Shown: positions 8,296 to 55,590, counted from the first letter of the whole stretch. The stretch is DNA of 56,602 bases, filler included, from Jimgerdemannia flammicorona (GCA_003990765.1; 3 parts of 3 records of this genome joined end to end with filler, not necessarily neighbours in it); one strand, 5' to 3'. The notes: a model not told the origin generated them from the letters alone. Numbers and translations are program-made.

Positions 8296-9390
8296 GATAT
8301 ACAATTCTAACCAGAGGGTGGGGTCCTCTGCCCCCTTTCTCTGCTACCTTACTGGTCACAAGGTTTGGTAGGCAACCTTCCAAGTCCCCTTTCTCCTATT
8401 GTTACCCCCTCTACCTCAGGTTGGTTTACTGTGTCTACATAGACATAGTGGGAGGAGGGCAATGGTGATGAGTTGCTTCTTTATCAGTGTTGGATTGGTG
8501 TCTTTTCTACTTTTTCACAGATTCTGGTACCTTCAGCTATATCTAGAGTATACCTATTTTAGTATAGCACCTTCTTCCTTTTACTATCATCAACAAGGTG
8601 TTGTCTTAGTATATTATGAGTTATATAAGGAGTCAGCCAACCTTGGGCATTAAGTGTCCAGTATAGGTTATCTGCAGGTCCTCAGTATTTGTGGTGGGGC
8701 TCTCTGGCTTTGGTGAGCTTCTCAGTGAGCACAGTTCTGGCATAGGTGACTGTTTTTCAGATGTTATCAAGATGGAAGGAGAGATGGCTGTTACAGATAG
8801 GAGGAAGGGTAATTATAGTGAACCAATAGGGTACTAGGCTAGGAGTAGTCATTGGGGCTAGAGTGAGTGCTACTTCAGTAGGGTCTTTTGATTGATGTAG
8901 AGTAGTTAGGTGGTAGGTATTACTCTTGGCTTCTTTTGGCAATTCAGCAGATTGGGCCCCAGTCATTAGAGAGAGTTGGGGGATCTAAGGCTACTTATTT
9001 CAGATATCTTGGCTACACTCAACTAAAACTGGGAGCTGATATAGTAATGTGATTGAGGCTTACAGGCTTGAGTAGTAGAGTATTGAGGGTCTTCTTCCAT
9101 CTCATATGTAAGTCCTCTACTTATCTCATCTAGGAGAACCAGGTCCTACCTATTGTAATATACTTTAATGAGAGTTTTTTTTTTATCTGTCATTTTCTTT
9201 AGAGTGGTAGAAGCTATTCTATTTAGCTTGAGTATGGTCTTATATATATATTGGGGTCTTGGGTATATGCTTTTGGTCATTGGCATATGGCTGAGTTTCC
9301 CCTAGTAGTAGGGAGAGTATGGTGTATAGAATGAGGTGTGGGTCAATATAGGCCCTACTGTATCTGGCATGGTCAAGCTGCTGGACAATA
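8296..9390. mobile_element. Unclassified hypermutated repeat fragment
   Basis: CpG disappears abruptly, TAG/CTA become abundant, and minus-strand coding-like stretches are broken by stops. Family not recognisable. Confidence 0.4.
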
Positions 9391-9524
9391 GCTAGTCTAG
9401 ATTAATGGGGGGGCAGTGCTTGATGGGTGGTGGAGGAGAGTTTTGGCCTATATAGTCTAGGTTCTTTTCTAATAAAAATCCACAGGACTCTGAGTTCATA
9501 AAACAAAAAAAAAAAAAAAAAAAA

Positions 9525-9585
<61 letters not shown>
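9391..9585 (+). mobile_element. LINE-type 3' end (G-rich tail, AATAAA, hairpin, ~85-nt poly(A))
   Basis: AATAAA 9471-9476, GGACTCTGAGTTC 9485-9497, then poly(A) to 9585. Same layout as the other LINE 3' ends. The 5' limit is approximate. Confidence 0.55.
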
Positions 9586-9588
<3 letters not shown>

Positions 9589-9879
9589 GGATCCTCATTT
9601 TATGTCTCATAAACCATTTTCACATAATGGAGTCAGAACATATGTACCAATGCCTTTTTAGCATCAGTGAGGCCTTTGATATTTATCAAGCTCTATTTGA
9701 ATAGTATTAGCCAACTATCTCTAATGTCTGGGCTCATTATAATTAAGGCTTTCTCATCAATAATAATGTTTGGAAAGTTTATATTTATTAGCTGGAGAAA
9801 TATAAGAAGTCAAGTACATGTACTGATGGTGTTACATTTGAGAAATATCAGAAAACTAGCATTTATGAATCTGTTCAAT

Positions 9880-12800
9880 AGTTTAATATTATAATATACT
9901 ATAGAATTCTCCACTATACTACTCAGAACTTGGGGGGAATCTATCTTATCACTTACTTATCTTATTGCTAAATACCATTTTAGTCTCACTTCTCTCCAAT
10001 CCCCACCTCTGCCATATCTTAGGCCACAGATCTCTCCTATATTTCCAAAGACACTCCATGCTATCTTCTAAGTAGAAGTTATTTACTAATATCTTACTTA
10101 ACAGAAGACAATCTCATCTCTATATCTGGGGTCCCCATTCCTCCTCTCTCTTATCACCTCTCTAATAGAGATCAATATGATATATCCCATCAACCACTCT
10201 CTATCAGAATCCTCTGTAATGTATCCTATGACTCTTCTCTAAAGCCACCAGAGATAGAAGATCACCAGTCATACTATAGAGAGAGAACCAGGCCTTCCAT
10301 ACTCTCTATATACTCTCTGTCCCTCAACTCACTTGCTTGCTTCAGCCACTATACTCTCAAGCAGTGAAGATACTTAGGAAAATTCACCAGATCTAGGCTA
10401 CTCTGGTCTACTAGCTAGGTCATATCTCTCAACCAATCTAACTTTATTATTCTGCCTATATCCAGGTCCTGGCCATCTTCAATAATTACTTGACCATCTA
10501 TGCTAGAAAGTTCAAGTAGTACTCCAGATATTATAGTTTAGGTAACTAGTATATATTCAATACTGTCACCCTTTCTGCCAGAGATATATATTGACTCTCT
10601 TATCCCAAGAGAGTACTTTTCTACTCTACTAACTGCTGCTCTCACCATCCATATAGTAGTAAGGAGTCATATATTAAAAAGTAAATTCCCAGATAGCAAA
10701 CTATCTCTTTTATAGAGATAATTATTCCAATTACATTTCCACCTACTATCTCTCCTCCTAACACTAAGATCTCATACTTATACTAGTTGAGCTTAGTACC
10801 TGAGCATCTCTCATATTACTCAACTACTCCCTTTAGTGCTATAACATCCTCAGCTGACCCCAGCCTAATTACTATATTATCAGTGAAGGCCCCTATCTTT
10901 CAATTAACCCCCAGAATGTCCAACTCTCTCATATTTTACCATATCATATTCAAAAGAGATACCAGGGACAATATATATAGAATTAATAATAGTGGATCCC
11001 TCTGTAGTACTTCTTTGCCCAAAGAGAACAAAACTCCTCTATATACATTTATTATAATTACTACCTGACTCTCTTCCAGTAGACTGACCAAGGCCTGCTG
11101 GACCCCAGAGAGAACTTCAATACACTTTAGCACCCCTTCCAACTATACTCACCAGACTCTGTCATAGGCCTTCTCTTGGTCCAAGAAAACTAGCTGACCA
11201 TTTACTCCAGCAGTATAAGCTTTCTTGATAATACTATACACCCAGATAGTCTCATCTCTAATCAGATATCTCTCTATGAAGCCTCTCTGCTCAGCCTCTA
11301 AAATCTATTGTACTACTCCTTGCAGCCTAGCTATCAATACTTTTATAACCAGTTTGTGATCTATATCCAGAAGTATAATTGGTCTCTAGTTCTTTTACTT
11401 CTCTCTTCTCTTTTTATTCTTAAACAACAGAGTCATACATAAAACTCAAGCTCTACCCTCCAATCCATGCCCCTGAGCCAATTACTTCATTATACATTGC
11501 TGATATTTTCTCCAGGATCAACTTGACTCTTGCTATCTTCTTCTAAAAATCCCACTATAAGCCATCCTTCTTTAGTATAGTCCTAGAGCTCATTATCATC
11601 AAAATCCACCAAATCTTATTTCCTAAGATAGTAGCACCAAGGTCATCTAAGTCTACTGCTGGATCAGAGTGCTGTTCCTCCAAGTGCCTATCAATGTCTA
11701 GCACCCCCACCTCTCTATCCTCCTTGCTCCACAAATGTCTCCACCATCTGCTCAACTGGTTAAAAATCACTAGTATCCCAACAATCAACTTCCCAGCCTC
11801 ATCTAAAACTCCCTTCCACTGCTGCCACACTCTCCTTATCTGTAGAGACTATGATAAAAACTTAATAGGTCTTTTTTCCTCCTCTAGTCTCTGTTACTAC
11901 AGCTGGACCACCATGCCCTTAATCTGTAGGTTCTTCTTTTATCTCAGTAAACTCTTCAGCTCTTCCACCTCTAGCCTAATCTGCTGTATATGCCAATTCT
12001 CTTTCTCACTATCATTTAACAGATCTGCCCAAGTCACCAATAACCTCATCAACCTCTGAGAGACTCACCTCACTTGCTTCTTCCTCTGAGTACCCCACAT
12101 TCTTCCTGTCTTCCTCTAGTACTATTGTGTCTCAGATTTCAATTATATCTAGCAATCTCTAATCTCCAGCCCCTCTGCTTACCAATTAAGAATCCTAGAG
12201 CTAATATCTATTATCTATGTCTCTTATAGAGAGGTCTCTCCTAGCAAGAGATATTCAGTTACTAATATCCAGACCTCTCTCCACTTTCTTCAAAATATCT
12301 CTCTCCTAGAAGACCCTAGTAATCTGACCACAGATACCAAATAGTTTCTAAAGTCCTCTAGATATTAACTCTCCAGCAATCAGTAGTCAACATCCAGTCA
12401 ATCCTCAAGTCTGCCCTACCACTCAGTGGGTAAAGACTCTATGATCTCCTCAGTCAAGCCTCCTGATACATATCTACTAAAGAGCTTAAGTATTTGACTT
12501 TCTCCCAGACTTCTATACCACTACTCCTACCTACTATCTCTCTTTCTTTATCTATTCTGTCTATCTTTCTATTATGTATTATATTAAAGTCCCCTCCTAG
12601 ATAATCAATCTCTATCTCCACCAATGCTCTAGATTCTTATAGTTCTTGAATACATTCTACTCTCTCCCTCCTTTCTACTGGATAATAATATAACTCAACT
12701 ATCAAAGGCCTCCAGCCTGGCCTCTTTCAAACTCCCTACACTACCCTACTCCCCTAGTGTCCAATGTCTCCAATATCCTTCTTGCTCTTCCTAACCAGAA

Positions 12801-13379
12801 TACCCACTCATTCTTATCAAACAGCTATACTATCTCATTTCTTCTCTAGTCTAGAATATCTAAGTCTCTATTATACCTAATATCCTACAGTAGGAACAAA
12901 TCTGCTTCTATCCTCTTCAGCCATCCAAGGTATTTCATCACTTCACTACTCCTCATTACTCATTGATATTTAAAGATAAGATTCTAGTTATACTGTTCAT
13001 ATTGAATAATATTATTTAGAGAATAGTCATCTACTCTACAGTTCTATGCTTGCTATATCACTAGTAATATCTAGGTTCCTCTCTGCCTCCAGTTTATCTG
13101 CCTCTCTCTGCTGAGCCTCTAATACCTCTAAGATCTTCTGATAATCTATATCATCCATAGCCTCCATCTCTGTTTGGTACTCCTCACACACTATCTACTA
13201 CTTTACTAGTCTTTTCCTTGGGTTTCACATATATGCAGCCCTGTTATTTGCAATTGCCAGAAGTGCTGCCTCTCTGTTATCATCTACCTAATATATCTTA
13301 GCCTTCAGCAATACTGCTATTATCTCATCCTGAAGTTTTTATAATACCTTCTCACTATGCAAGATTTTACCCCAGTGTC
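9880..13379 (-). mobile_element. Degenerate L1/Tx1-clade LINE (copy A): end of ORF1 plus most of ORF2
   Basis: ORF2 start ATG AAC AGT ATA ACT AGA at 13000. APE endonuclease and RT remnants (FLDQEKAYDRV ~11160-11190, RDPLL). Colinear with the 40283-46068 copy. Many TAG/TAA stops. Confidence 0.9.
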
Positions 13380-15215
13380 TTTTTTTTTTTTATATATATA
13401 GTCTCTTAGACTTTATCATTTATTATCAGTCTATCAAATATTAATATAGTAACCCAGTCCACCACTCCATCTCCTATCTAATCCCCCTAGGGCCCCCCCT
13501 CCCCCCTATCCCCTCATGCTTAAAGACTACCTTACTATCTACCACTATAACTCTCCCTCTACTCTGCTTACAGATCTTCTTCATAAGCAGTACTGACAAC
13601 TCCCCTGCAGATTCCATTTCAGCTACCAACTCATCAAGATATCTACCATCAACCCTTCCTATCTTAACAGTTGCTCTTCTAAACTCAATTGTCTCCCCTT
13701 CTCAAAGACAAACAGCCAGTATCTAGTCAACTCCACCTATACAGCCAATGCCCACCCAACTATGAGCCACTCATTTCCAATTTTCCCCACCAATCTATCT
13801 CTTAAGTCTTCTCATCTATCTCACTCATCCACCCCTCTCCTCACTATCTCCAGTCTAGTTCTAACTACTAACCAAAAGTCTCCAAGTATCTCATACTACT
13901 CTCTAAGCCAATGTTTGGGTGTCTGTATAAATTCTCTTTCCTGACTTACATTATAGCACTCCTCACACTCAAATTGTCTTCCTTCTATAAGATGGCCTGA
14001 GTAAAAGTTGAGTATGATATTCCTCCTCAGTATGTACCACTAAACCACTTAGTACTTAGGTGGCAGCCATTGCTATATCTCTACACTCTAGGCCCAAACC
14101 CTATTCCAGTTCCACTTCTCTTCAATATCAGCCAACTATTAGCCACTAGATCATATATCCTATCTCAACTCTCTCTAGCACTTGACCCTATCACTAATAT
14201 TAAAGTCAATTAGGAGAGTACCCCCCAACAATACTCAATCTCATCTCCATATCTCTGGACCCTAAGACATCTCTCCTTTCACCCCCTGCTAGCAAATACC
14301 AATATAGTGTACCCCCTTAACTACTCTCTACCAAAAGCCCTTATGCTGCATGTATCCACTATTCTGAAGCCCAACCAAGGACAGTAGATCTCCCATAGAG
14401 TCTCTTGATAAGAATCTCATCTCCCAGAACTTTTTTATTAGAGAAACCCAGCTATCACTCCTTAGTTCCACAGCTCTCTTCAGCCACCAAGCTCTCAGAT
14501 AATGCAGCTTTTTTGAGAAGTCAACCAGCCCAAGGCCTCCTCTAGCCACTGGCAATGACATAATTTTCCAGCTAATCTGACTCCTTCTCTCACCCAGATC
14601 TAACCTTTGGTTAGCTTCAATAGCCTCTTTACTACTCAGGCTAGAAAGTCCAGATAATATATCAAATACCACAGCTTTAACAGTCAGTAGACATTCAAAA
14701 TTGAAACATGATCCACCAAAGAGATGTGGTGGCCTCTCTAACTTCACAGAGCCTCCTCCCAAATAGCCACCCACTATTTCTACTAAGATCTTAGTAGGAC
14801 TGACCCATAAACTGAAAGATAGATGCCCAAGTATCATACAGTATCTCCAGCAGGGACAATTGTTCTAATGATATCCTCTCCCACCAGACTATTGTTCAAT
14901 ACTATCATTTCACACTTGTACTAGTTGAGTTTAGCCCCAGAGAGTATCTCATACCACTCTACTATTTTCTGGAGCTCTTCTACATCAGCAATCAATTCTA
15001 AGCCAACTACTATATCATCTGTAAAGGTCCCAACTTTCTACACAATTCCAAATACTGTGAGCTCAACTATCTTTTGCTGAATTCTGTCCATCAATAGCTC
15101 TAAGAATAGAGTATATAAAATAGAAGACAGTGGGTCCCCCTAGAGAACACCTCTACCCAGAGAAAATACCACCCCCTGATGACTATTGCATATGAGTACT
15201 GCTCTACTCCCTTTC

Positions 15216-16588
15216 CAGAGTGAGCTAAGCCACACAGACAGGGGCAATATGGATAATACAGACAACATGGGCAACATGGGCAATATGGGCAGGCAAGATG
15301 AGCAAGATGGCAAGATGGCAAGACGGGTGACATGGGCAAGACAGATAGACGGCAAGACAGGTGATATGGGCAAAATGGGCAAAATGGGCAACATGGGTAA
15401 TATGGGCAACACAAGTGGGCAACATGGGCAATACAGGCAACATGGGCAGGCAACACAGGCAATACAGGCAATACAGGCAACACAGGCAATACAGGCAGGC
15501 AAGATGGGTAAGATGGGCAAGATGAGCAAGATGGACAAGACAGGCAAGATGGTAAGACGATAAGATGGGCAATATGGGCAAGACAGGCAAGATGGACAAG
15601 ATGAGCAAGATGAGCAAGATGGGCAAGATGGGCAAGATGGGCAAGATGGGCAAGATGGACAAGATGGCAAGATGGCAAGATAGTAAGATGGGTGACATGG
15701 GCAAGATGGGTAGATGGCAAGATAGGTGACATGGGCAAGATAGGCAAAATAGACAAAATGGGCAATACAGGTAATACAGGCAATATGGGTAGGCAATACA
15801 GGCAACACAGGCAATACAGGCAATATGGGCAACACAGGCAACACAGGCAATATGGGTAATATGGGCAACATGGGCAACATGGGCAACATAGGTAGGTAAG
15901 ATGGACAAGATGGGCAAGATGGGCAAAATGGCAAGATGGGTGACATGGGTAAGATGGGCAGACAGCATGACAGGCAATATAGGCAAGATGGGCAAAATGG
16001 GCAAAATGGGCAATACAGGCAACACAGGCAACATGAGTGGACAAGATGGGCAAGATAGGTAAGATGGGCAAGATGGGCAAGATAAGCAAGACAGCAAGAT
16101 GACAACATGAGCAATATGGGCAATATGAGTAGACAAGACAGGCAAGATAGGCAATATGGGCAAGATGGGCAAAACAGGAAAAATGAGCAATACAGGCAAT
16201 ATGGGCAATATGGACAACATGGGTAATATGGGCAACATGAGACATAGGCAACATGGGCGGGCAAGACAGACAAGATGGGCTAGATGGGCAAGATAGAAGG
16301 TACTAATAGGGGTAGGTCAGATGCACTAGATGCCAAGTACTTGAGGTGGTTGGGGCTCACAACTCATATCTACTGGGTGGGGCAGACCAGGTAGGAGGAT
16401 CTAGTTACTCAGGCAGTGAGGTTGTAACTTATACCCTAAAGGTGCAAGGCTGGGTGAGAGTGAAGGTGGGTTGATATTGGGGTGGAATGGGGCTACTGAT
16501 GTTGTATGAGGATATGTGGTATGTTATAGATAGTTAATAAATGAGACTACAGTCTAAAAAAAAATAAAAAAAAAAATAAAAAAAAAAA
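15216..16588 (+). mobile_element. Non-autonomous minisatellite (VNTR) retroposon with poly(A) tail and TSD
   Basis: ~14-bp TSD: CTCTACTCCCTTTC (15202-15215) and CTCTACTCTCTTTT (16589-16602). About 1.05 kb of 9-bp repeats, ~260 bp of unique G-rich sequence, AATAAA 16536, hairpin 16544-16555, A-rich tail 16556-16588. Confidence 0.8.
15243..16295 (+). repeat. 9-bp minisatellite (GGCAAGATG / GGCAACATG / GGCAATATG / GGCAATACA variants, with some 8- and 13-bp units)
   Basis: Read directly. On the order of 110-120 units. Confidence 0.95.
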
Positions 16589-18802
16589 CTCTACTCTCTT
16601 TTAGTAGAGCTGATCATTGTTACTTAGAACTATTGAGGAACTCTAATCCTATCTAGTACCTTTGCCAATCAGACCTGCCTAACCTGATCATATGTCTTCT
16701 CCTGATCCAAGAAGACCAATCTTCCATCTAGCCTACAGGTTCAAGTCTCTTCAATAATATCATGGACCCAAGCTATACTATTTCTAATGAGTTGGTCTCC
16801 TACAAAACCTCATTGCTCCTCACCTAAGACTTGCTGGGCTATCTTCTACAGCCTCACAACCACTACCTTAGTGATCAACTTTTTGTCCATATCCAGGAAC
16901 ATGATAGGTCACCAGTTCTTCTAGTCCTCTCTCCTGTCCTTATCTTTATACAGCAGTGCCACCAGCCCCAGATCCTGCTCTCCCACCCACTTCTCTGACT
17001 GTAATACTAAGTTGCAAAGTGCTATCATCTCTCCCAGTACTCTAGAGACTCCCACTATCTTCTTCCAGAAGTCCTAGAGCAGACCATCCTCTCCTAGTAC
17101 TGTGTCCAGCATAGTCATAGCAAGAATCTGACAAATCTCCTCCTTCTGTACTAGCATCACCAAGCCACCAAGTTCCTCTACTTGAGGTGGATACCAATCC
17201 TTCAAAGTATATTCAATGGTGGCAGCATTGGCCCCACCCTCCTCCTCACTCTACAAACTACTCTACCTCTTCTTCAGTAAGCCTAGAATATCTTATAACC
17301 TATATACCAGCAGTCTATCAGAATCTAGTACCCCCTCTCACCTCTGCCTCACTCTCCTCATCTGAAGGATTCTTGAGAGGTACTTAGAGGGCCTCTTCCC
17401 CTCCTCTAGCCCCTGCTAGCATAACTGTATAGCCAAACACTATACTTGTATCTCCTCCTCCTCTCTCAACATCTGTTATAACTCAGTGACCTCCAGCTTA
17501 GCCCACATCAATCTCCAGTCCTCCACCCCCTTCAGGGCTAAAAGATCTGCCCAATTTTCCTGAAGCTGAGCCAATCTAGCAGAAGCCCAGGCCACCCTCC
17601 TCCTCCTCTATCTTCCTGCTACCCTGCTAGCCTCACTCCAGTAAACTCTAGTAGCCTTCTTCAATCTTATCCATTGAATACCAACTGGGGCACTCTCATG
17701 TACCCAACCCTCCACTTTCTACCAAATGTCCTCAGCCCAATTGTTGCATAACTCCTTCTCAGCCAACAAAGAGAAATTGAGATACTAATATCCAGATCCA
17801 TCCCTACTTCCCCCAAACTGCCCTCACCCTAACAAGCTTCAATGATCTGACCATAGGCACCACTCAACCTCCAGAGACTTCTAGACATCCAGACCCCAGT
17901 AGTTGGCTGTCAGTACTCAGTCAATTCTAGTTTCCAGACCACCCACCCAATGAGTATAGATTCTTTTATCTCCCCACATCACCTATCCAGCATCCACCAA
18001 GAAACTCAGTCACTCCACCTTCTCCCAACCACCACTCCTGCCTCCTGCATTTCTCTCTCCATCTGTCTTATTCAACTATACTAAGTGAACCATATTGAAG
18101 TCCCCTCCAAGCACCTCTACTCCTGCCTCTGCAAGTACTCTACTATCCAAAAGATAATCAATCTACTCTATATGCTCACTTCTGATCACAGGGCAGTAGT
18201 AAGGTCCAACTACAATTAACTCTTATCCAGGCTAATGTCCTCTCTCCAAACCATATGATTCCTCCAGTTCCTGCTCCTATAAATTTCTCCTCACTCTTTC
18301 TATACCAGTAGCTCAATCTTACTATTCCAGACTACTACTCTACCCCATTCTCTTGTTCACTCCTATTGATCAAGATTCTTCTCACATTGCACATCTTATA
18401 GAAGAAAGAGATCTGCCTCTAAACCTTTTAACCAAGTAAAAATATTGTATCACCTCCCAAAACCCTACAGACTATTCACATTTAATGAGAAAATGTTAGT
18501 TGTACTATTTATAAGGAATAATGTTAAATAGATGTATCCACTTTACAACACCATATTCACTTTCTCTCTAGCTAAGTCCAATCCATACTCAGTAGCAGTC
18601 TCCACTCTCTCAATCAGCTTAGCTTCTAGTCTACCCAAGAGTTCATCCATCACTACATCATTCTTTAACTCCATCTCCTCTCAGTACTCTAAACAAACCT
18701 CTTGCTAAATTTCCAACCTACTCCTCTGCTCTTATCAGAAGACTGCATGCTCTCTAGCAGCCACCACCATCTCTGTCTCTCTTTTTTTTTTTTTTTTTTT
18801 TT

Positions 18803-18902
18803 NNNNNNNNNNNNNNNNNNNNNNNNNNNNNNNNNNNNNNNNNNNNTTAATTAATTAANNNNNNNNNNNNNNNNNNNNNNNNNNNNNNNNNNNNNNNNNN
18901 NN
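18803..18902. other. Artificial contig linker N44-TTAATTAATTAA-N44
   Basis: Exactly 100 nt, with stop codons in all six frames. Identical to the linker at 37704-37803. Confidence 0.98.
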
Positions 18903-18938
18903 AAAAAAAAAAAAAAAAAAAAAAAAAATCAATTAGCT

Positions 18939-20010
18939 AGGACAAACATTTGGTGGTATGGCGGGAACAATGGAGATGACTTGGCCGCTATTATACCATA
19001 CGCGAGAAATGGTGATCTTTTGTGTCGGAACGCTTTCTGTGAAGAATGCCGCAAATTCAGACATGGAGGGACACAAGTGAAGTTGCATGGCAAACAAGAT
19101 CGTTTGGGCGCATTTTTTTTCGCTTGGCGCCAAATTCAATCAAGAGAATAGAGTATTCAATGTAATTGGTTTCGAGGATATCGGCACTGTTCAATTTGAG
19201 ACTCAGCATCGCTTTGAAGTAAAAGGTATTGGTTATGAGCGTCCTGCAATCGACTCCTAATATCTTTGAGATATGGCATCAAAAGCTGAAAGATTGAGCT
19301 TAAAATATACTTCACTGAAAAAAACTTTCAATCCCCACATTATACAAAGACGCACCAGCGTATTAGAAATGGAGGATGAATAGGAGCAGAATAACTACAA
19401 AGAAAAAAATGAATGCCAAAAACAATATAGTATAATGAACGGTCTATACCAGATACTTCAGACAGTTCTAAATAACTTATATCCAGACTACTGAACTATC
19501 ATCTAAATATCTCTCTAGCTATCAATAGAAGCTTTGTACAAGGTCCTCCTTTGGATTGATTTACTTATTGCTGTCATTTTAAGTGATTCAAATTAGGGTT
19601 ACAAACACAATTTGTTCATCACGTATTATGACGAAGGGGGTGGATAGAAGAAATTCGAAAGGGGTCCTGCTATCATCAGGTCGGGTTACAGAGTGCTATT
19701 CGACAACAAGAGTCTTGCTCCGCAACAAGCGTATGCAGAAAATTGAACGGTGATCGTCAAAATACTTCATTCCTCCTCAATGACCAAATCCTCGCTGGAG
19801 ACACGCAATCGCTAGCCTACTTCACAATCAGTAGCGAGACATAGTTCTTCCGACCTGTTTTCATCGGGTTCCAGCTGTTTATCATAGGCCTGAATTAAGA
19901 GAGGTACACCTTTGACACGCACAGCGAGGAAACCTCCGTGGACTATCAACGCCTCATTTATCCGGGCTTGCAGTTCGAAGGCGAGCGTAAATTTCGGCAA
20001 TATATATAAT
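18939..20010 (+). pseudogene. Possible disrupted host gene remnant, unknown family
   Basis: CpG-retaining DNA with protein-like plus-strand segments (RTNIWWYGGNNGDDL...; GYKHNLFITYYDEG...; ERYTFDTHSEETSVDYQRLIYPGLQF) broken by stops and frameshifts. Confidence 0.25.
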
Positions 20011-20029
20011 AAAGACCGACTTCTATATA

Positions 20030-37803: not shown

Positions 37804-38066
37804 GTTGTTTGTTTTGGTTCTCTGATTCGACGCGTCTCGGTGCTCAGTATATATGCATTTGGTCCTGATTGGTAAGGTTCTGTTTGTGTAGATCTTGTGT
37901 TCCGTGACTTCATATTGACTCAGCTTTGTGCGCTGTGACTTCGGTTTGACTCAGCTTCGTGATCAAGCAGGTGATTTCCAGATTTGTTCGGAGGTCGCAT
38001 GTGATCTCAGTGGCTTGTTCAGAGGGTGACATATAATTTCGGTGGCTTGGAGGTTGTGCACTTACA
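37804..38066 (-). mobile_element. Probable 5' portion of a younger LTR from another family, cut by the contig end
   Basis: CpG-retaining block ending sharply in ...CACTTACA (TGTAAG on the minus strand). Short internal repeats (TTGACTCAGCTT x2, GTGGCTTG x2) and TATATA near 37847. Confidence 0.45.
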
Positions 38067-38288
38067 AGTTCAGAGAAGGCTTTTTACTATCTTTAGTAAT
38101 ATCAGAACAGTAGTTTTCTCTATTGCTATCATAGAATTGTACTAGCTTTCTATAACTACTGAAAATATATATATCAAAAATTATAATATTTATTGTCTTT
38201 ATAGAAGATATATGATTTAAGATAGTTTGTAGCTTAGAGTTTTTCATTCTTTATACTTTCTGTAGCTTTTTAGTATGATTCTAGCTAG

Positions 38289-39865: not shown

Positions 39866-39875
39866 TCTTCCTCCT
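39866..39875 (-). other. Polypurine tract AGGAGGAAGA
   Basis: Directly abuts the TG start of the 3' LTR on the minus strand. Confidence 0.85.
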
Positions 39876-40364
39876 AAATAAGGATCTCTTTGAACATCCT
39901 TATTCATTGGTCCAGTCCTGAAAAATTTATTGATTCCATAACCTCTGGCAAGGGGTCAAAAAGTAGTATTTATGGACTGATATCTTCCCTATATATTTTG
40001 GCATAATGGTGAAGAGTTGCTCCCTTCATATAGCATAAGGGCCTGATTTTAATCTTGACCAATTAGTTGATAGTTCAAACTCCTCTGGCTTTGAAAGTCT
40101 TATGAATGAGTAGTTGTTAGTGCCATATCTCTTAGAGAATGGTTCAGATAGATAGCCTGCTAGTCATGGGATATACTATTATAATTTTCAGACTAGAACC
40201 TCATGGATGGTCATTATGTTTTGCTTCTCTTATATAGATTTATGGTACTTCTTGAGTCTATTCCTATATACCATGATAGACATGGCTTTCACCAGTAACA
40301 TTCGGGTGACACAAGACTCAGACAACACTTTTTACAATGTTTTTGGTATCCGACGACTAACAAC

Positions 40365-42280: not shown

Positions 42281-42311
42281 GGTGGGGTCTCTATTGCAAC
42301 ATTCCTTCAAT

Positions 42312-45300: not shown

Positions 45301-45974
45301 AAGCCTAGCAGAGGGTTGGAATTGGAGAGGAGTGGAATTGGAATGGACTCTGGCTTTGGAGCAAATGGGTGTGGCAGTGGCTGCCCCCCAAGTTCTGGGT
45401 GGTGTGGTGGTGGGTCCTATGGTGGAATGTGATGTTGAACTATCGGTCTGGACACTTGGTGGATGGTGGGGTATTCGAGTGTGAGGATTGTTTTCATGTG
45501 GGTCAGGAGGGAGGAGTGATACAAACACCTGAACATTGGCTTGGGGAATGTGAGATTTTGGGGGAGTTTTGGAGAGGTGTTAGGAACAGGGTAGGGCTGG
45601 GTGCCATGGAGAGAGAGGTAGAGGGGAGGTGGGGAGAGCTCTGCCAGTGACTGGTGGGTGGAGTTGGGGACGAATAGCTGACCCTTAGTTGGGCTTTAGC
45701 TATGTGGGTTGGGCTGGCTGGACATTGGATTTATGTATTTGAGGAAGGGTGCCAGGTCGGGGTTGGTGACAAGATGGCCTGGTGGGAATGGTTGATGTTG
45801 GATATTTTGAATGGCTGGTGGCAGAGTTGGGGGATGGGTGGGGGGTACCGCAGGGGTCTGGTGCAGTGTATCACCCAGAAGAGTGGTGGGAGGGTTCAGG
45901 TAGTTGGTAATTGAGTGGTGCTCGAGCAGGGAGAGGTTGAGGGAGGGGGTTTGGGCCCCTGGGGCATTGGTTGA
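42312..45974 (+). pseudogene. LINE ORF2: APE endonuclease + reverse transcriptase + C-terminal Cys/His motif (~1220 codons, internal stops)
   Basis: LNINGL, LLQD, GGDFN, SDH, PGYWQLNSSLL, APGEDGL, LDQEKAYDRV, GVPQGDPLSP, FADD, YLGI, GGLGL and CEDC..TPEHWLGEC all lie in one frame. Confidence 0.95.
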
Positions 45975-48748
45975 GGGTAGGGATGACATTGTATTGTTTA
46001 TATATATTATAGACTTCAGTAATAAAGGGCAGTCTAAGAGACTATAAAAAAAAAAAAAAAAAAAAAAATGTACCATAATAGATAGTATAGTCTCTGAGAT
46101 TTTTTTAAGCCAGAAGATAGTTCTCTTGATATCTTGTATATAGAAGAGTCCTTCCTATTTAGGCTCCAGTTTTCATGACCATGAGGCTTCTACCATATTT
46201 TGATATAGTAGGACCTTTTCTCTGATTTGGATGGGTTCTAGGGTCTTGTGATTCTTTTCCGCATTCTTCCTTATTAGTACTTATAACTTGATGATATAAT
46301 CTTCAGCCTTCTTTCTGATTTAGTATAGCCTCTGGATTTCTGTATCAACTCATCTCCAAGTTAGGTCTAGATTTATAACTGAGGTTTCATCAGAATCTTC
46401 TTTTCTAAAGAGCAGTTCTCTTAGAGTAAAGTGTGTACTTTGTGACTATATATCTCATAGGATAGAGAGAATAGTTGAGAGGTAGTTATCCCAATTCTCA
46501 TATGTGTCTGAGATCTTTACCAGGATGTTCTTGAGGGTCTTATTGGTTCTCTCTGTCTGTCCATTTCCTTGAGGGTGATATATGGTGGTCTTGATGTACT
46601 GAATCTTATATTTCTAATATATTATCTTATAGAATCCATTGACAAATTCTGTGCTGTAGTCTGTTGTGATTTGCTTTGATATCTTGTAGTGGCAGATGAT
46701 TTCTTAGTGCAGGAAGTCAGCTATAGAGAGAGCATTGGCTTCTTGTAATGCTCCTGCTTCTATCTATTTAGTAAAGAGGTCTACAATAATTACATATAAT
46801 ATAGCAGTTTCCTGATAGTATTACTGGTAGTGGCCTAATGATATCTATTACAATGTGGTGGAAGGGGATAGGCTCAATTCTTCATGACCTGAGTACTTGG
46901 TCTTGCTGATCTTGTTTCTGTTTTTGGCACTTGTCACACTCTTTGACAAATTGGTGCAGGTCTTCTTCTATCTCGGGCCACTACATAGTTCTTCTTGTCT
47001 TGTCATATATATTAGTTCCTTCTAGATATCCTTGTTTGTGTACTTTCTTCATTACTTGATACTTCTTGTATTTGGATATTACAAGCTTTCCTCCTTTTCT
47101 GAGTATAGTGTTGTCTAGTTCAAACTGTTTCTAAGTCTAGTTGATAATGGTGATTATTCAGGGTTTGAGGTGGTTGGACATCTTTTGCTGCCCAAGGTAG
47201 CTGATTAATCCATAGTATAACTCCTTATTCATATTGAATAGTCTTGATGGAGGTGTTTTGGAGTGTTCTTGAGAGTGTATCAGCATTGATATTGATTTTT
47301 TCTGAGCAGTACTTAATAGTACAGTCATACTCTTATAGTCTGTAGATCCATCTGGCATATATTTCTTTGGAGTTCAGAATGTGGAATAGCCAGGCAAGAG
47401 TGGAATGGTCTGTTTGAATGGTGAAGTATTTTCCAGCTAGGTAATAGTGGAACTTGTCTACTGTCCAAACTACTGCTAAGTATTTGAGCTTACATGACTC
47501 ATAGTTCTGTTCTGCTTTACAAGTACCTTGGCTTATATAGGAGATGATATATTCATGTCTATCTTTCTTCTGAGCTAGGACTGCTCCAAGTCCTATAGTA
47601 CTTGCATCTGTCTGCAAGATGAATTCTAGGTTCCAATCTGGTCTTCTGAGGATAGGTGCTTGGGTCAACCTGGTTTTGAGTTTATTGAAGGTTTCTTGGT
47701 ATTTCTTGATCTATTTGAATTTGGTTTCCTTTTTCAGTAACTTATAGATAGGTACTATAATGTTAGAGTATCCTTTGATGAATTTTCTGTAGTAGGAGGC
47801 TAGTCCAAAAAAGGCATAGACTTCTGTAGTTGTTCTGGATCTCAGATAGACTGCAACAGTCTCAATCTTTATGAGGTCTGTGTAGATTCCAGTCTGATTG
47901 ATGAGGTATTCTAGGTAGATGATTTTCTGAGCCACAAACTTATATTTCTTGGACTTGATATAGAGGTCATACTCCTTGAGCTTCTTGAGGGCTAGCTGTA
48001 TGTAGTTGACATATTCCCATACAGTGTTGCTGAAGATGATTACATCATCAACATAGACAAAGAGCTATTTTCCAATCTCATTACTGAAGACTCTGTTCAT
48101 CATTTACTGAAAACTTGCTGGGGCATTGCACATTCCAAATGGCATTCACAGATAGAAATAGGTGGCATTAAGTATGATGAAGGCTGATTTCTCACTGGCA
48201 TCTTAAGTGAGACTAATCTGATAGAAGCCTGAGAATAGATCTAAGGTAGTGTAGTATTTGGCTTCACTTCTAAGAGTAGTAAGGATTTCTTGAATATTTG
48301 GCAAAGGCTGCCTATTCTTCTTGGTAATTGTATTGAGTTTTCTGTAGTCAATACAGAGTCTTAGCACAAACTCTCCAGGCTTGCTTTCTTTCTTTGAGAC
48401 AAGGACAATGGGTGAAGCCCAGAGACTGATAGCTTGCTTGATAATTCCAGCTTCTTTCATTTCCTTGAGTTCTGCTCACAGTCATTCTCTATAGGCAGGT
48501 GGTATAGATCTGGCTTTCTGGTAGATGGGCTTGGTATTGCCAGTATCAACTTCATGATAGTACTTAGGTTCTTGATTGTAGATATCCCTGAAGTCTGTAG
48601 TAAGTACTCCTTCATTCTGGTGCAGGATCTTAAGAAGTCCTTCTTCTAGAGGAAAGTTTTCTCCAATGGTATATGTGTGCTTGTTCTGGTCCTTATCTTT
48701 CTTATATTCAAGTTCAGTAATCTTGGTGGTAGCATAGGCTCCTCTTCT

Positions 48749-49162
48749 GGTAGATCCAAAGCCTTGTTCTTCTCTCTTAGTCTTGATGAGTTTGATGACT
48801 TCCATGATCTTGGGCTTCTTGATTTCATAGATCAGTATCTGGCCAATCCTGTCATACTTCTTGACTTTGAATAGGGTAGTGGGGTTGTAATTCCTGACTA
48901 TAAGAAAGATCTTGCCAGTGTAATCAGAGTCAATTACTCCTCCTTCAACTGAGATTTCACTTTTGGCCAGACTGCTCCTGGTTTTGATAATTTCAGCATA
49001 GTTCTCTGACAGCTTGACTCCAATTCCAGTGCCAAGTAGTGTAGTGGTCTGTGGTTTGAGAGTAGCATCTTGAATGCTGGTAAGATCTATTCCTATGGCT
49101 CCTTCAGTCTTATATTCTGGAATCTTGGCTTTAGAGTGAAACTTCTTAACCATGAGGGTGAT
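48749..49162 (-). pseudogene. dUTPase domain of Gypsy III pol, between protease and RT
   Basis: All five trimeric dUTPase motifs in an open frame: AIGIDL, RSSLA, GGVIDSDYTG, DRIGQ, REEQGFGST. Confidence 0.95.
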
Positions 49163-51342
49163 GTCTGGTTCTTGTTTCTCCTCATCATCACTGTCAGCTT
49201 GAAGCTCTGGGGGCTGGTCATTTTCTTCAGCTTTCCTTTTTACTTCAGTGGCTTCTTGCTCATGTTTCTGTTGGCAGATTTTCCTAACTTCACTGATATA
49301 GGACCAGTAGTCATTCAGGTGTTCAGAGTAGTACATCCTAGTATTATGGGGGCATCTTCCTTGAGGGGTATAGCCATCAATGATCTTGTTGTACCACTGC
49401 TCATCTATGAGCTTGGGTGTCTTGTTCTTATTCTTTTTCACTAAGTATATGAAGACTTCTGTGTCCTCTTCATCTCCTTTCTCTATGTCTGGTAGAACTT
49501 CTTTGTAGACATTATACCTTTCTTCCTCTATAGTTGATCTGCATCTTCTGGGCATTGAGATCAATGATGGCCTTAGCCTTGTGAAGTCATTAGTTACCAA
49601 TGAGGATATTATAGTTGGTGGCACTTATAATAATCAAATTTACTGGGATGGTAGCTTCTTCTATCTTGATAGAGACTTTTTGGATTTTGTCAAGGGGGGT
49701 AGCTTATATACTATCTGCTGTGACATAGACCATTTTGGTAGACTCTTCAATGTCTCAGCCTAGGTGGTCAATTGTCTTCTTACTTATGAAGCATCCTCTA
49801 GCACCAGTATTAATAATGGCATCAAAGATACAATCTTCGATCTGATATAAAGTATAGACTGATATCTTGTGCTGATCTTTGGATTCTTCATCTGAGTCTT
49901 CTTGATCATCTTCCTGTACATTGTGAGCTTTTACAATCTTGTACTCTTGATTCTTAACAGTAGTTATAAGTTCTACTCTTACATAACTGCTATCTGAAGG
50001 CAGGGACTTCAGCTAGCTGTCCAAAAGTAGCATTGACCTTCTATTCCTTGAGGTCCTTGTAGATATCATACTGGTGGATCTTGATCTTATGCAGCTTCTA
50101 TTCCTTCTTATCTTCACTTTCTCCTGAGACTGGAGTAGTGCCTTCAATGATTTGGCAGGCAGCTTCATCTAACTCTATGTCTTAATTAATCTTCTCAGGT
50201 TGGGTCTTACTTTGAATAGTGACAGCTGGGGTCTTCTTTGGTCTTCCAACTGGCTTGCTGTTGCCCTTCTTATTATAGGGCTTGGACCAGGTCCTGGTAC
50301 CTTCAGTAGTAGGGTAGAATTCGAGCTCCTTGTAGTATTCTTCATTATCAGTATCACTAATATCCTCAATGACTACTGCATTAGTTTGTTCTCTAGTTCT
50401 GCTAGTATTGCTTGGTTGGGCTTTATCTTATTTTGGTCATGCAACTCTTTGCATAGTGGCCTTCTTCTCTATATCTGAAGTATGTAATATTATGTTCTTC
50501 TGTAGCAGCTACAAATCTCTGCACTGGTCTCCTATTGGTACTTCAGACTTCTCTAACAACATTACTAAGATGTGCAGTCATCTTGGTGAACTGCTTGCAA
50601 GTTCCTCTACTGGGTCAGCTTTGGCTATCTTGGGGGTAAGTGGAGATGGTTGTCTGTTTATAACTGTAGTAGATATGATACTAGTTGGCTTTGATGACTC
50701 TATGTTGATACTAGTTATTTTCTTTATTGAGTATTTGGCAGGATATCTGGCAGTCCAATATCTCTGTATAAAGACCACTTTTTGATCAAGAGTCAGTACA
50801 GTTGAGGTAGACTGGATTGTTAGAGCAATTTCAAGATGAATTTCTTTAAGAAAGGTTGAATTTGCTATTTGTTCCTTGATGTGGTCATTATAGCTACCCA
50901 AGACAATCTGGTAACAGATTTGGATATAGAATGAGTTGGGATCTTCACTGAGTCTCTGGCAGATAGTATTGAGTTGATCCTTGAAAGCTTGTTTGATCTC
51001 TTCAGTATAGTATGTTGTTCTGAAAAAGGCCTTTATGTTGGCAAGGTTGGCTGCACCAGCATCAGCAATAGTGGCTGTATTGAACTTGTCTCTGACAGGT
51101 CCTCTGAGGCTGACTGATAGAAGGACCAATTGTACATCCACATTGAGGGCTCATATAGTGGCAAATTGTTCAAAGTCTTCAATAAAGGTCAGGATTGACT
51201 CTTTAGTAGTATATCCACAGAATGTAGAGAGACATATTTCTATTTTATCTTGAATTCTTGCAGAGGTGACTCTTGTAGTTAGAGTAGTTGTTGTGGTGGT
51301 TGTTCATTTTTCAGCTTGAAAGTGAGAGATTCATCTTAAATC

Positions 51343-51360
51343 ATCAGCCAATAGATACCA
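51343..51360 (-). other. Putative primer-binding site TGGTATCTATTGGCTGAT
   Basis: TGG begins 3 nt inside the 5' LTR boundary. The priming tRNA cannot be identified because of mutation. Confidence 0.55.
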
Positions 51361-51593
51361 AGTTATTATGTAGTAATCACTGAGTCCTTTAAATATATCA
51401 GATTCTCTTCAAGGTGTATCTCTTAGACTAACTCAAGTTTGTAATAAGCAAGTTCTTATTGGAGTGCCTTTCCAAGGTCTTATAGTCCTCAAACTTCTTA
51501 TCTTTAAACAGTCTTGTTATCTCTTTAGATTACTTACAAGAAAGTGTGTGTAAGTGAACTTGACTGACTTTATTTTAGAAGAAATAAGAAGGG

Positions 51594-51601
51594 TATTTAT
51601 A
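51594..51601 (-). promoter_or_regulatory. Likely canonical LTR TATA box (TATAAATA) with AATAAA ~20 nt downstream
   Basis: Also present at 38523-38530 and 34638-34645. AATAAA at 51569-51574, 38498-38503 and 34613-34618. Confidence 0.55.
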
Positions 51602-51857
51602 CAAAATATAATTCAATGATTGCTAAGATATAAAGCTAAATATAAATTCCAATAATCAAATAAAAATACCAGAATATGGAAAACTGTTAAGTTTCAGAGT
51701 TAGTACAGATGGTTGCACAGGTTCAGAATACTGGTATAATTTTGGTGATATAGAAAAATAGTACTGGAATAATTCTGAGTTATATCAGAATACTGGTGGA
51801 GAAACAGCTGTTACATAGAAAAAGAGTGCTGGCATAATTCAGTATAACTAAGGGACT

Positions 51858-52682
51858 TTAGAGCAGAATATTCAGAACTATAAGAGCTTCATCTTCATCA
51901 GAGGTCAGGATATCTTCAAAGGAGATGAGATCTGCAAACATCTCATCTGTCTCATCATCATCATATAGATCATGTATTTCACATATGTTATATGAGATGA
52001 CATCATCACTGATAATATTATCACATTTGGCAGGGAAATTGAGGGCTCTCCAATCTATGAGATTCTCTTCCACAAAATAGAGAACAAATGTGGAGTCTTA
52101 AGGAGGTCTAACCTGGATGCTTGGGTCTTAGAATACTGAGATTAATCCTTACAGGAATTGATCTGGATTGTCCTAGAGGATGGGATACCAGAAGTCTTCT
52201 ACTTTATTACTATTAAGAGTGATAGTAGACTGGGCTTTTATAGCTACTCTGGCTTTTAGTACATTGATATAGTGGACTGATAGGTTTCTGAAGTCTGAGA
52301 CTCTAATATACTCCAAGTTGGGAATTGACCATGATACATGTCTGAAGATCTGATGGATCTTCTTAGCTATTCTTACTTCATATATATCTATGGAAGTGGT
52401 ATCTTGTAACTCTTGGGGGCTGGCCTGTGGGAACTCCTGGCAGAGAAGGTTTCCTATTTTATACTCCTGCCATATTTGGAGGTATTCAGTAGTAATGGTG
52501 ATCCTTATTTCCATTTTATGGCAGTAGAGAATAAAGTGATAAGGATCTGCAATACCTAGGTTGAGGCTAGGAGTCCTTCTTATACAGGTCCTCATGGCTC
52601 TTCTGATGTCTTGGAATATCCTTTCTTCAACTGAGGTACCTTGGTGGTTCCTTGACCTTGAGGTTTGACAAGCAGCAGGCAT
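51858..52682 (-). pseudogene. LTR-encoded ORF, 5' LTR copy (ATG intact, 274 aa, 4 internal stops)
   Basis: ORF-track entries 52173-52682 and 51858-52073 are in the same frame. The four stops between them are CAG/CAA in the 3' LTR. Confidence 0.82.
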
Positions 52683-52761
52683 TTCATTTATAGTAAGTCT
52701 TTGAGCTATTATGGGATTGGTGGATCTTATTGGTTACTGCTACTGCAGTTCTTTGATCCTT

Positions 52762-52769
52762 CTTTTATA
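52762..52769 (-). promoter_or_regulatory. TATA box (TATAAAAG) ~80 nt upstream of the LTR ORF
   Basis: Conserved at 39691-39698 and 35785-35792 at nearly the same spacing from the ORF start. Confidence 0.55.
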
Positions 52770-52939
52770 TTCCTCAAGATACCCATACTATGGTTACAAT
52801 AACTCACAATTGGTTACCATTACTTATCTTGTAGCCTGGGTGATCATACTGTATAATCTTCTTATACTTTGATCTGATGGCTTGTAAGAAAAAAAGCTAT
52901 CTCTTATGCTGATATCATTATTCTAAGATCACCATTACA

Positions 52940-55590
52940 ATATACTGATAAAAATAGAAAGAAAGTTACTTATAAAAAAAGAAAATAAGTATTACTCAGT
53001 ATCTAGTATCTAACTCTAAATAATATAGATTCTAAAAGAAGCTTGAACTCTATTATATTAAACTATTTAAGATTCTCAAGAAATATAAATCTATCATATA
53101 TAAGTTGAATCTCTTAGCAATACTAAAAAGAATTTATCCAGTGTTTTATATATCTCAATTTCAGCAATATATTCTAAATATCTTTGAAGAAAAAACTATA
53201 CTATCTCCAGATTTAGTAATTATTGATTAGCAATTAGAATATAAAGTAGACCACATCCTAAATTACAAGGATTACTAATTGAGATAAGCTGCCAAGTCTA
53301 CTCAGTACTATCTTATGAAATAGAAAGAATACTCTAAGTATAATACTATCCAGAAAAGAGAAAACAATCTTTTATTAAATATAAAATAAGTAGTAACCTA
53401 ATATAGATATATTGGAAATTCTAATAGAATTTCTGAAAAATAGTTATATCTCTAAATATCTCTAATGAAGAAAAGTATAAATATCCTGAAACAATCTCAT
53501 ATAGATAACTTATCCCTAATATAAGTATCTAGCAATAATACTAAGAATAAATTAAGAATAAAATTACTATTACTATTCTTATAGCTATTAAATACTAATG
53601 AAATTTTACTAAACTATCTTCTATTAATATATGAATCTCTAGAGATCTAGATCTAAATAAAGTCTAATAATATCTTAGAAGAATCTAATATTTTCAAGCT
53701 TTTTGCTACTATCAAGAATTAAAGAAGTATTATGAGATAAAATACCTCATCTGTTAACAAGCTACTCTTAGTACTACTAAATAATAAGTCTGTCTTTTCA
53801 TTAATAACTATATTTATATTATTACTAAAAGATTCTATATTATTTTCTATATCTAACTTTAAGTTCTTAACTATCTCTATAAAGTATTCTTTGAAAATAT
53901 TGTCAATCTGAGTAATGAATAATAAAGTGATATTATCTTTCAAGTAGTCTAGTATCATTATAAAAAAATTATTCAGTTCTTAGTATGTTTATCAGAGATT
54001 TATAAATTCTAGTATATATTTATGATAATATGTTATAAACTCAAACATATTTTATAAATATAAATAACTTATAAACAATAGACAAACATAAGATAAAATT
54101 TCCAAAAAAAAACTATTTTATTTCTTTTTTTATTTATAAATACTCCTATAAATATTTCCCTCTATAGACACTTTCCTTCTAAAAATACTTTCTTCTTCTG
54201 TAAATAGTTTCTTCTACTATATATTCTTTTCTATATTCTACTCATCTCTTCCTTAGATTAAATCATTCTTATTCAATGAAAGAGGAATATTGAGAATATT
54301 GATTATCTCATTATCTTCATCTGAGTCAATATCTTTACCCAGGTTATGAACTGTTTTTTCAATCTCAAGTGGATTGATATAGTTATAAATCTTATTGATC
54401 ATTCCAAGCTATTTCATATATATTTTCTTATACTCTCCTTTGTTGAAAGTTCTTGATAAGACATCAGACCAGGTAATATAATTCAACTATAATTATATAA
54501 AGGAATAAGTATATACTAAATAAGTATATACTGATAAATATAAATCCACAAACTTAAAAATATACTTATAAATATATAAATAATAGTAACTATATAATGG
54601 TTAATATGTTTATCTTTTTGAAATATATTCACAAATCAAAGTTTTCATTTGAAGAATATAAAATAGAGTAGTTGCTTTATATAGTTGCTATAGAATGGCT
54701 TACTGAGCTCACTCTTATCATCTTTTAGATAAATGAAATTATTCTGGACTTACAAATATTGTACTACTTATTGATAAGTATGAGTAAGATCTTTTGGAGC
54801 TATAGATTTTAGCTATTTCACATCAGAGAAGATTTGATTAAACTTTTTATCAAAGACTTTATAAATGTGGGAACAGCAGACTATAATCTGATAGTGTAGC
54901 TATTTTTTTTAATAAAAATGAAAATAGTTGAGTTTGTGAACTATTAAATAAATATACAAATATAATATAAATGAAATACTCACTATAGTATAAATGGAAC
55001 CATTGCTGTCTTTGGCCTTTAAGCTTACATCCTTCAAAATTTTAATGATAATATCTGTTTTCAGATTACCATCATACTTTGGGAAAAGATCTTCAAGAAA
55101 AAGATGATGAAGAAGCATGTTCACTGTAAGCTTTCAGATCACTTCATTAATCTTATATTTCCAGCTAATACCTATAGATTTGCTAAATTATGATAAGAAA
55201 ATTTAATTCACATTCATAATTAAGCTATAATATATAAACTATAATTTATGAACTTATTTTCAAAAACAACTTACCTATTTCTTTTTCTATCTTACTTAAC
55301 CATCTGTCCTATATATCTGACCAAATGAGCCTCCACATCATCATTCTGAAGTATTTTGTTATCTAGAAGCACCTGGTGCTCTCGGCTGTATACCGGGATC
55401 TTACTCAAATTACGTGAGGAATCCAAAGGGAGTAGGTAGCTTTTAATTATATGGTTGTGAGGAGAACTAACAGACACCGCACTGCTGGCCAGTTCTCTGT
55501 ATGGCAATATGGCAATTGATACAGCAAATATATGTATTCGAAGTACCGACATGGACTTGAACCTTTTGAGTATTTTTCCGTGATTCATTA
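52940..55590 (-). pseudogene. Hypermutated, apparently intron-containing coding remnants, probably genes of an unclassified DNA element
   Basis: Protein-like minus-strand segments (LLHHLFLEDLFPKYDG, SKPFYSNYIKQLLYFIFF, YITWSDVL, ISNPCNLGCG) separated by GTAAGT..AG AT-rich spacers. CpG-free below ~55380. Confidence 0.35.

Follow-up and report, generated by a model that had tools for sequence, protein, structure and literature searches.

What has removed almost every CpG dinucleotide from most of the transposon DNA sampled in the Endogonales fungus Jimgerdemannia flammicorona, beside genes in which CpG is normal? We addressed this question in a 56,602-nucleotide stretch of its genome (GCA_003990765.1; hereafter the window), which consists of three contigs joined artificially, so that the order of features across the linkers has no meaning. 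An earlier note on this DNA had proposed that its repeats, in what looked like a fungus outside the Dikarya, underwent C>T/G>A hypermutation resembling repeat-induced point mutation (RIP), and every detail of that observation that we checked held. The differences between transposon copies are transitions in great excess, they run in the direction C:G to T:A on both strands, they depend on the 3' neighbor of the cytosine, they are restricted to transposons, and they increase with the age of the element. Judged from the sequence, this record supports a RIP-like and probably methyltransferase-type hypermutation in a non-Dikarya fungus, with a context rule of its own.

Spectrum and context of changes between paired copies

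A Gypsy element in the window has two long terminal repeats (LTRs), L1 and L2 (Table 1), which started out identical at integration and now differ at 216 of 1547 aligned sites. These differences comprise 207 transitions and nine transversions, a ratio of 23, and five of the nine transversions lie in one poorly aligned patch of 22 columns. The alignment holds three indel events, in agreement with the description of indels as rare in the earlier note. The smaller samples that had been read by eye have the same character, as transitions account for all seven differences in the first 23 LTR bases, all seven in a 63-bp tandem duplication and all three in the target-site duplication of LINE D (a long interspersed nuclear element nested in the Gypsy element), the last three all in TpG/CpA context. 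The exception among the paired copies is a younger Tc1/mariner transposon, whose terminal inverted repeats (TIRs) are 94% alike, differ by 10 transitions and five transversions, and are without the hypermutation seen in the LTRs.

Context rates were calculated with C/G taken as ancestral at every variable LTR site and with both strands folded. The fraction of cytosine-bearing sites that vary depends steeply on the 3' base, being 20/20 for CpG, 112/224 for CpA, 52/160 for CpC and 15/228 for CpT (CpA versus CpT, odds ratio 14, P = 2e-26; CpC versus CpT, P = 6e-11). The effect of the 5' base is small (0.28-0.34 variable for all four bases), and ACG, CCG, GCG and TCG sites were all lost. The transitions extend well beyond CpG, which accounts for 20 of the 207. 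An ancestral CpG that was struck differently in each copy would leave a CA/TG double difference, and because the two LTRs have only ten of these, the creation of TpA from CpA/TpG is seen directly 112 times. We calculate that in each copy about 33% of CpA, 20% of CpC and 4% of CpT cytosines have mutated since insertion, together with all those in CpG, and that C>T change at CpA has been about 100-fold faster than transversion, counted per site. The order CpG > CpA > CpC > CpT recurs, blurred by saturation, in comparisons of LINE copies A and B, of a third LTR copy (L0) with L1 and with L2, and of the old LINE copies with LINE D.

Both strands were struck to a similar degree, with 84 of 282 C sites (0.30) and 123 of 360 G sites (0.34) variable, and the events divide into 110 and 97 between the two copies, spread evenly along the LTR. 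Shuffle tests of the 207 events detected no strand- or copy-coherent runs (strand, P = 0.65; within L1, 0.70; within L2, 0.52). Two other candidate signatures were rejected on these data, namely plant-like CHG targeting, as CAG is the least mutated of the CAN triplets (23/65), and ultraviolet (UV)-type damage, as there is no dependence on a 5' pyrimidine.

CpG loss, direction of change and element age

The observed/expected (o/e) ratio of CpG in 2-kb bins is 0.84-1.07 over positions 1-8000 and 0.00-0.03 in most bins between 10 and 54 kb, with the last CpG before the depleted block at 8295 and the first one after it at 55383. Six stretches are free of CpG (8296-15323, 16259-18802, 20224-28011, 30920-37703, 46975-49837, and 50323-55382), and in these 32,067 bp together not one CpG is left, where base composition predicts 879; for 20224-28011 and 30920-37703 the expected numbers are 172 and 134. 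Between 8296 and 18802, where about four CpGs had been noticed by eye, all of them within a minisatellite, there are exactly four (15324, 15350, 15558, and 16258).

The gene region at the left end of the window served as the control. Outside long open reading frames (ORFs), the 4.7 kb of this region have a CpG o/e of 0.96 and a TpA o/e of 0.73, and CpG loss is thus not general to non-coding DNA. The TpA richness claimed for the repeats was also found, at an o/e of 1.0-1.3 in old repeats versus 0.6-0.75 in genes; the adjacent unique DNA thus differs in composition, which speaks against a spectrum common to the repeats and single-copy intergenic DNA. Surviving cytosines are followed by T in 54% of cases in 29 kb of old repeats (CpT o/e 1.62) versus 25% in unique DNA. 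The two other CpG-normal stretches, 18929-20223 and 55383-56602, directly adjoin CpG-free DNA.

The absence of CpG alongside abundant TpG and CpA fits only the C>T direction. The sole usable homolog from a search with the Gypsy element, a 1,499-aa Gypsy polyprotein (P0121; 40-44% identity), provides a second view of direction, as replacements relative to it that are reachable by one transition are GC>AT in 175 cases and the reverse in 45 (P = 3e-19). A tblastn alignment with P0121 passes through 20 in-frame stops, and conserved residues have changed in the ways that had been claimed, with 4 of 12 aligned Trp codons converted to stops and with His>Tyr at 8 positions, Asp>Asn at 12, Cys>Tyr at three, and Met>Ile(ATA) at three. 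At six Arg positions the codon has become TAY, through a double change from CG to TA. In comparisons of the old LINE copies with LINE D, T/A in the former stands opposite C/G in the latter at 461 sites, and the reverse is true of 170.

The elements form a series by age. The young LINE D (GC 54%, CpG o/e 0.28, TpA o/e 0.6-0.7) and Tc1/mariner (CpG o/e 0.27) have raised CpA/TpG (folded CpA o/e 1.29-1.33), with TpA at a low or normal level. The Gypsy element is intermediate, being almost without CpG and still retaining CpA/TpG, and the oldest blocks have no CpG, lowered CpA/TpG, raised TpA, a GC content of 22-35% and a positive classical composite RIP index (0.22-0.64). All of these stages could be explained by a single process with relative rates of about at least 9 at CpG to 1 at CpA, 0.5 at CpC and 0.1 at CpT. 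The minisatellite has the same imprint on a small scale: the variable dinucleotide in its 62 anchored units is TG in 35, CA in 19, TA in eight and CG in none, the mixture expected of an ancestral CpG.

Host, elements and flanking DNA

The impression that the host belongs to the Mucoromycota is borne out by the CorA exon of the gene region, which matches two J. flammicorona proteins at 87% and 100% identity, with the next best matches, from Umbelopsis, Mucorales and Glomeromycotina, at no more than 70%. In a maximum-likelihood tree of 23 CorA rows, the exon and the two Jimgerdemannia rows are grouped with support of 100/100, and this group falls within a clade of Bifiguratus, Umbelopsis and Mucorales (95/94), with three basidiomycete rows placed elsewhere. 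The tree thus places the host in the Endogonales (Mucoromycotina), and by both identity and tree it is not an ascomycete with ordinary RIP.

The features of the window are collected in Table 1. The same LINE and LTR families are present in all three contigs, as determined by self-BLAST. Pfam scans covered 126 of 171 listed ORFs that run from stop to stop over 60 aa or more, plus 21 longer ORFs; they returned no match for 18929-20223, nor for the oldest LINE copies, whose ORF pieces are short. Scans of the window for tRNAs and Rfam families gave no match.

Table 1. Features of the 56,602-nucleotide window, with positions counted from its first nucleotide.
Feature	Position	Strand	Evidence and remarks
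Unique gene region, control	1-8295		CpG o/e 0.96, TpA o/e ~0.7, 460 CpGs
TFB6-like ORF	5254-5739	-	Pfam match
CorA exon	6516-7076	-	Pfam match
CpG-free transposon block, contig 1	8296-18802		Only 4 CpGs, GC 39-45%
Poly(A)-tailed remnant	8296-9585		86-bp poly(A) at 9500-9585
LINE copy A, old	9880-13116	-	Self-BLAST to LINE B and D
LINE fragments	13861-14126, 16687-17107, 17747-17961	-	Self-BLAST
9-bp minisatellite (GGCAAGATG)n, ~115 units	15238-16294		Tandem Repeats Finder (TRF); sole 4 CpGs of the contig 1 block
Assembly linker (N run, TTAATTAATTAA, N run)	18803-18902; second copy 37704-37803		Repeat search
CpG-normal stretch, start of contig 2	18929-20223		45 CpGs, o/e 0.94
CpG-free transposon block, contig 2, Tc1/mariner excepted	20224-37703		GC 22-36%, TpA o/e 1.15-1.29
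LINE copy B, old	23015-27944	+	Poly(A) tail 27919-27944; 64-69% identity to A; BLAST to D; TRF
63-bp tandem duplication within LINE B	26790-26915
Tc1/mariner DNA transposon, younger, 266-bp TIRs	29516-31187	-	DDE_3 and HTH Pfam matches; CpG o/e 0.27
L0, third copy of the LTR family, contig 2	34445-35963		71-76% identity to L1 and L2
Gypsy element, 1.56-kb LTRs with TG..CA ends	38305-52939	-
L1, 3' LTR of Gypsy	38305-39865	-	Complement of polypurine tract directly right (39866-39880); 0 CpG
LINE D, least decayed, nested in Gypsy, poly(A) tail	40283-46068	+	Exo_endo_phos and RVT_1 matches
LINE D target-site duplication, 16 bp	40267-40282 / 46069-46084
Gypsy internal region: gag, protease, dUTPase, reverse transcriptase, RNase H	46085-51379	-	Pfam matches
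L2, 5' LTR of Gypsy	51380-52939	-	86% identity to L1; TGGTATC (TGG-type), like a primer-binding site, adjoins
Further CpG-free transposon remains	52940-55382		0 CpG, GC 23%
Integrase SH3 fragment	53036-53227	+	PF24626 match
CpG-normal unique DNA, right edge	55383-56602		46 CpGs, o/e 0.99

The Gypsy element has four CpGs in 46070-51379. Between its protease and reverse transcriptase lies a dUTPase domain (PF00692, E = 3e-27; 48485-49624, minus strand), within a stretch of 380 aa that is still open despite the 20 stops elsewhere in the element. The ORF2 frame of LINE D contains 13 stops (six TAG and seven TGA), and a homolog search with it gave no match at E <= 1e-10. The sense strand of the LINE family (copies D, B and A) is strongly rich in G and poor in C, with a GC skew near +0.45 that becomes -0.45 in the inverted copy; this may be native or the trace of a strand-asymmetric process that preceded insertion. 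In the Tc1/mariner transposon, all 11 CpGs are situated between the TIRs and none within them. The minisatellite yields three spurious ORFs of 360-400 aa, and the gene region contains two long poly(T) runs (2623-2667 and 2833-2868). To the left of the Gypsy element, 37828-38040 has 11 CpGs in 213 bp and is followed by 264 CpG-free bases (38041-38304) that extend up to the LTR; this combination represents either another transposon remnant or a spill-over of mutation into the flank.

A candidate process and its counterparts

Which process would leave such a record? After insertion, transposon DNA would undergo a cytosine-targeted C:G>T:A mutation, restricted to transposons, ending sharply at their edges and acting on both strands, at a rate set by the 3' base: complete at CpG, then CpA, then CpC, with CpT nearly spared. 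The most likely agent would be a DIM-2-type cytosine-5 methyltransferase of the DNMT1 superfamily, recruited to transposon heterochromatin. Cytosines in CG and in non-CG contexts would be methylated by this putative enzyme and, in the methylated or enzyme-bound state, would be converted to thymine by deamination, so that damage would accrue as many independent hits over time and not as single-strand bursts of the Neurospora kind. A dependence on the 3' neighbor together with indifference to the 5' base is the behavior of a cytosine-5 methyltransferase, and not that of an APOBEC-type deaminase or of UV light. We hold this account, a gradual, transposon-limited and methylation-linked C>T mutation directed by a DIM-2-type methyltransferase, to be somewhat better than an even bet; the enzyme, the presence of 5-methylcytosine, the timing and the role of repetition as the trigger are the parts of it that we infer.

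Published gene inventories are consistent with such an agent. The RID-1 methyltransferase is described as exclusive to Pezizomycotina, and DIM-2-like homologs are reported from Endogonales and Glomeromycota (PMC9963178). For J. flammicorona, Dataset S1 of the same paper has three DIM2-like entries, proteins that carry BAH and C5-MTase domains and have N. crassa DIM-2 as reciprocal best hit; rows for DNMT1, RID1 and DNMT5 are absent for this species, and Endogone sp., of the sister genus, has a DNMT1 row. Such a trio of DIM2-like proteins may mean that DIM-2 expanded once DNMT1 had been lost, or the apparent loss may be a gap in the assembly. In Zymoseptoria, Dim2 is reported to promote C>T changes at CpA in transposons during mitosis (PMC8016269).

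Published screens have pointed the other way. A 2021 paper reports that no RIP signatures were detected in Gigaspora or Mucoromycotina (PMC8647823), and a kingdom-wide k-mer screen by Badet and Croll (2025) reports RIP-like enrichment in ascomycetes only (PMC12543289). Supplement file 12 of that screen scores J. flammicorona as "no_rip" (n_noncoding 23, n_repeat 0, ratio 0), by a test of enrichment in repeats over all non-coding DNA on scaffolds >50 kb. The J. flammicorona assembly has 231 Mb, 73% repeat, an N50 of 10.9 kb and about 70% BUSCO completeness, and because it is both repeat-rich and fragmented, that screen could hardly have revealed a signal. In the library of papers that was searched, none brings Endogonales, CpG and transposable together.

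Several points weigh against the account that we prefer. CpC lies well above CpT here, which matches none of the DIM-2 or RIP preferences that we compared, and a review ascribes to DIM-2 a preference for CpT (PMC13297926). The link to DIM-2 comes from one paper's table for an assembly of about 70% BUSCO completeness, in which gaps may account for the absence of DNMT1, DNMT5 and RID, and the evidence as a whole comes from one 56-kb window with essentially one clean LTR pair. The context rates take C as the ancestral base at all variable sites. With L0 as the outgroup, polarization gives no clear direction: there are 33 C>T and 56 G>A changes, versus 41 T>C and 47 A>G. L0 is itself heavily mutated. 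If P0121 stems from a genome richer in GC, as it may, the 175:45 asymmetry would be inflated. Finally, the absence of strand runs may also be compatible with many superimposed rounds of a burst-like process.

This last point leads to the alternative that survives best, true RIP, in which duplicates would be recognized through their homology and mutated from C to T, probably at about the sexual (zygospore) stage, by a RID-independent pathway of the DIM-2/heterochromatin type, with many rounds summed. Neurospora has a DIM-2-dependent RIP pathway, and J. flammicorona has DIM-2-like paralogs listed. The near-pure transitions, the 3'-dinucleotide specificity that includes CpA>TpA, the hundredfold rate at CpA, the gain of TpA and of stop codons, the sharp repeat borders and the composite index of the oldest blocks are all as RIP would leave them. 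The lack of strand- or copy-coherent runs speaks against it, as does the fact that the younger multi-copy elements, LINE D and Tc1/mariner, retain about a quarter of their CpGs and normal TpA. Supplement file 3 of PMC12543289 also counts, for this species, 37,472 matches between repeats that are 1 kb or longer and 95-100% identical, which efficient RIP would not be expected to leave. We regard true RIP as a serious but doubtful explanation; the missing runs and the many near-identical repeats lean toward gradual methylation-linked decay.

A simpler alternative would be methylation at CpG only, with deamination of 5-methylcytosine as in basidiomycetes or vertebrates and a neutral GC>AT bias in place of any non-CpG targeting. 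CpG loss is indeed the fastest and is complete (20/20 LTR sites, and none left of 879 expected), the younger LINE D and Tc1/mariner show just CpG loss with a gain of TpG/CpA, and the ten CA/TG double differences are classic descendants of CpG. However, CpG explains 20 of the 207 LTR transitions, whereas 112 are at CpA, where they create TpA in plain view, and 52 at CpC. Neutral decay would not predict a CpA variation seven times that of CpT or a transition/transversion ratio of 23, and the six Arg positions that now read TAY require a second, non-CpG step. We consider this explanation improbable.

APOBEC enzymes are guided by the 5' base. Still less probable, to the point of being very unlikely, is the action of an AID/APOBEC-like deaminase on single-stranded DNA, or an editing step that struck the cDNA or RNA of retroelements ahead of integration, even though retroelements with stop codons and with G>A and C>T changes do resemble the products of APOBEC-type restriction. 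In the window the 3' base decides and the 5' base has little effect, the two strands are struck about equally, and the differences between LTRs, target-site copies and tandem duplicates arose after integration, which together with the changes in the minisatellite excludes editing of cDNA or RNA. Native element composition or an assembly artefact, with no mutation process, is scarcely credible: the LINE sense strand is strongly G-rich and the ApG/CpT excess is partly present already in young LINE D (o/e 1.2-1.3), but the LTR, target-site and tandem-duplication comparisons measure change independently of composition, unrelated families (LINE, Gypsy and unclassified remains) share the pattern, and contig 1 has both normal genes and a CpG-free block.

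RIP and RIP-like hypermutation are usually treated as features of the Dikarya, and the paired-copy spectra indicate that a 231-Mb, 73%-repeat Endogonales genome scars its transposons heavily in non-CpG contexts. We tentatively extend this, as a possibility that is far from secured, to the Endogonales as a group, which may have a RID-independent repeat mutator that DIM-2 paralogs drive and that, by a rule of its own, targets CpG, CpA and CpC but not CpT. If this is true, RIP-type defense would either predate the Dikarya, the DIM-2 branch being ancestral, or have arisen independently in the Mucoromycota, and the high repeat content of the J. flammicorona genome (about 73%) would be the reason for its erroneous "no_rip" score. 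With its reported repertoire of three DIM-2-like proteins and no RID, DNMT1 or DNMT5, this fungus would offer a testable system for the antiquity of the DIM-2 branch of RIP, and one that bears on why such mutation fails to halt genome expansion. It also carries a warning, as in genomes made up largely of repeats the signal would escape screens that compare repeats with other non-coding DNA.

How does this candidate process compare with known systems? In vertebrates, plants and Rhizophagus irregularis, as here, CpG in transposons decays to TpG/CpA beside spared genes. Transposons are methylated and genes unmethylated in these organisms, a state that we infer for J. flammicorona, and in R. irregularis the transposons are reported to be CG-methylated (PMC8647823). 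The depletion in the window differs in being total (o/e 0.00 versus about 0.2), in extending to CpA and CpC, and in its transition/transversion ratio of 23.

The basidiomycete RIP-like patterns are reported to center on CpG or TpCpG (PMC3318451, PMC4352252), and those of the Pucciniomycotina share with our case a CpG-led C>T change in the repeats of large, transposon-rich genomes. In contrast to them, no 5' T is needed here, and CpA and CpC carry most of the changes since insertion. A hint of RIP outside the Dikarya, the only group in which it is said to have been observed before, comes from Zoophthora radicans (Entomophthorales, Zoopagomycota); that RIP-index signal belongs to a different phylum and was obtained from 1-kb windows as a composite dinucleotide index and not from paired-copy spectra (PMC11105155).

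The RID-dependent RIP of Neurospora and other Pezizomycotina has more in common with the pattern in J. flammicorona, including C:G>T:A changes in repeats with unique DNA spared, a choice by 3' neighbor that includes CpA>TpA, the gain of TpA and nonsense codons, sharp borders, and a positive composite index in the oldest blocks. The order in Neurospora is CpA-led, whereas here it is CpG >> CpA > CpC >> CpT. One event of RIP mutates one strand, whereas strand-coherent runs are lacking here; moreover, RID-1 is reported only from Pezizomycotina (PMC9963178), and J. flammicorona keeps tens of thousands of near-identical repeats (PMC12543289).

The DIM-2 systems remain, namely the Dim2 mutation of Zymoseptoria and the DIM-2/heterochromatin pathway of RIP in Neurospora. 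The complete erasure of CpG, the additional loss at CpC and the non-Dikarya host set our case apart from them. What it shares with DIM-2-type mutation is C>T change outside CpG that is confined to transposons and affects both strands, in a species for which DIM-2-like genes are listed. With the Dim2 mutation of Zymoseptoria tritici it has in common transposon-confined C>T at CpA that would have no need of RID and that may accumulate in mitosis (PMC8016269).

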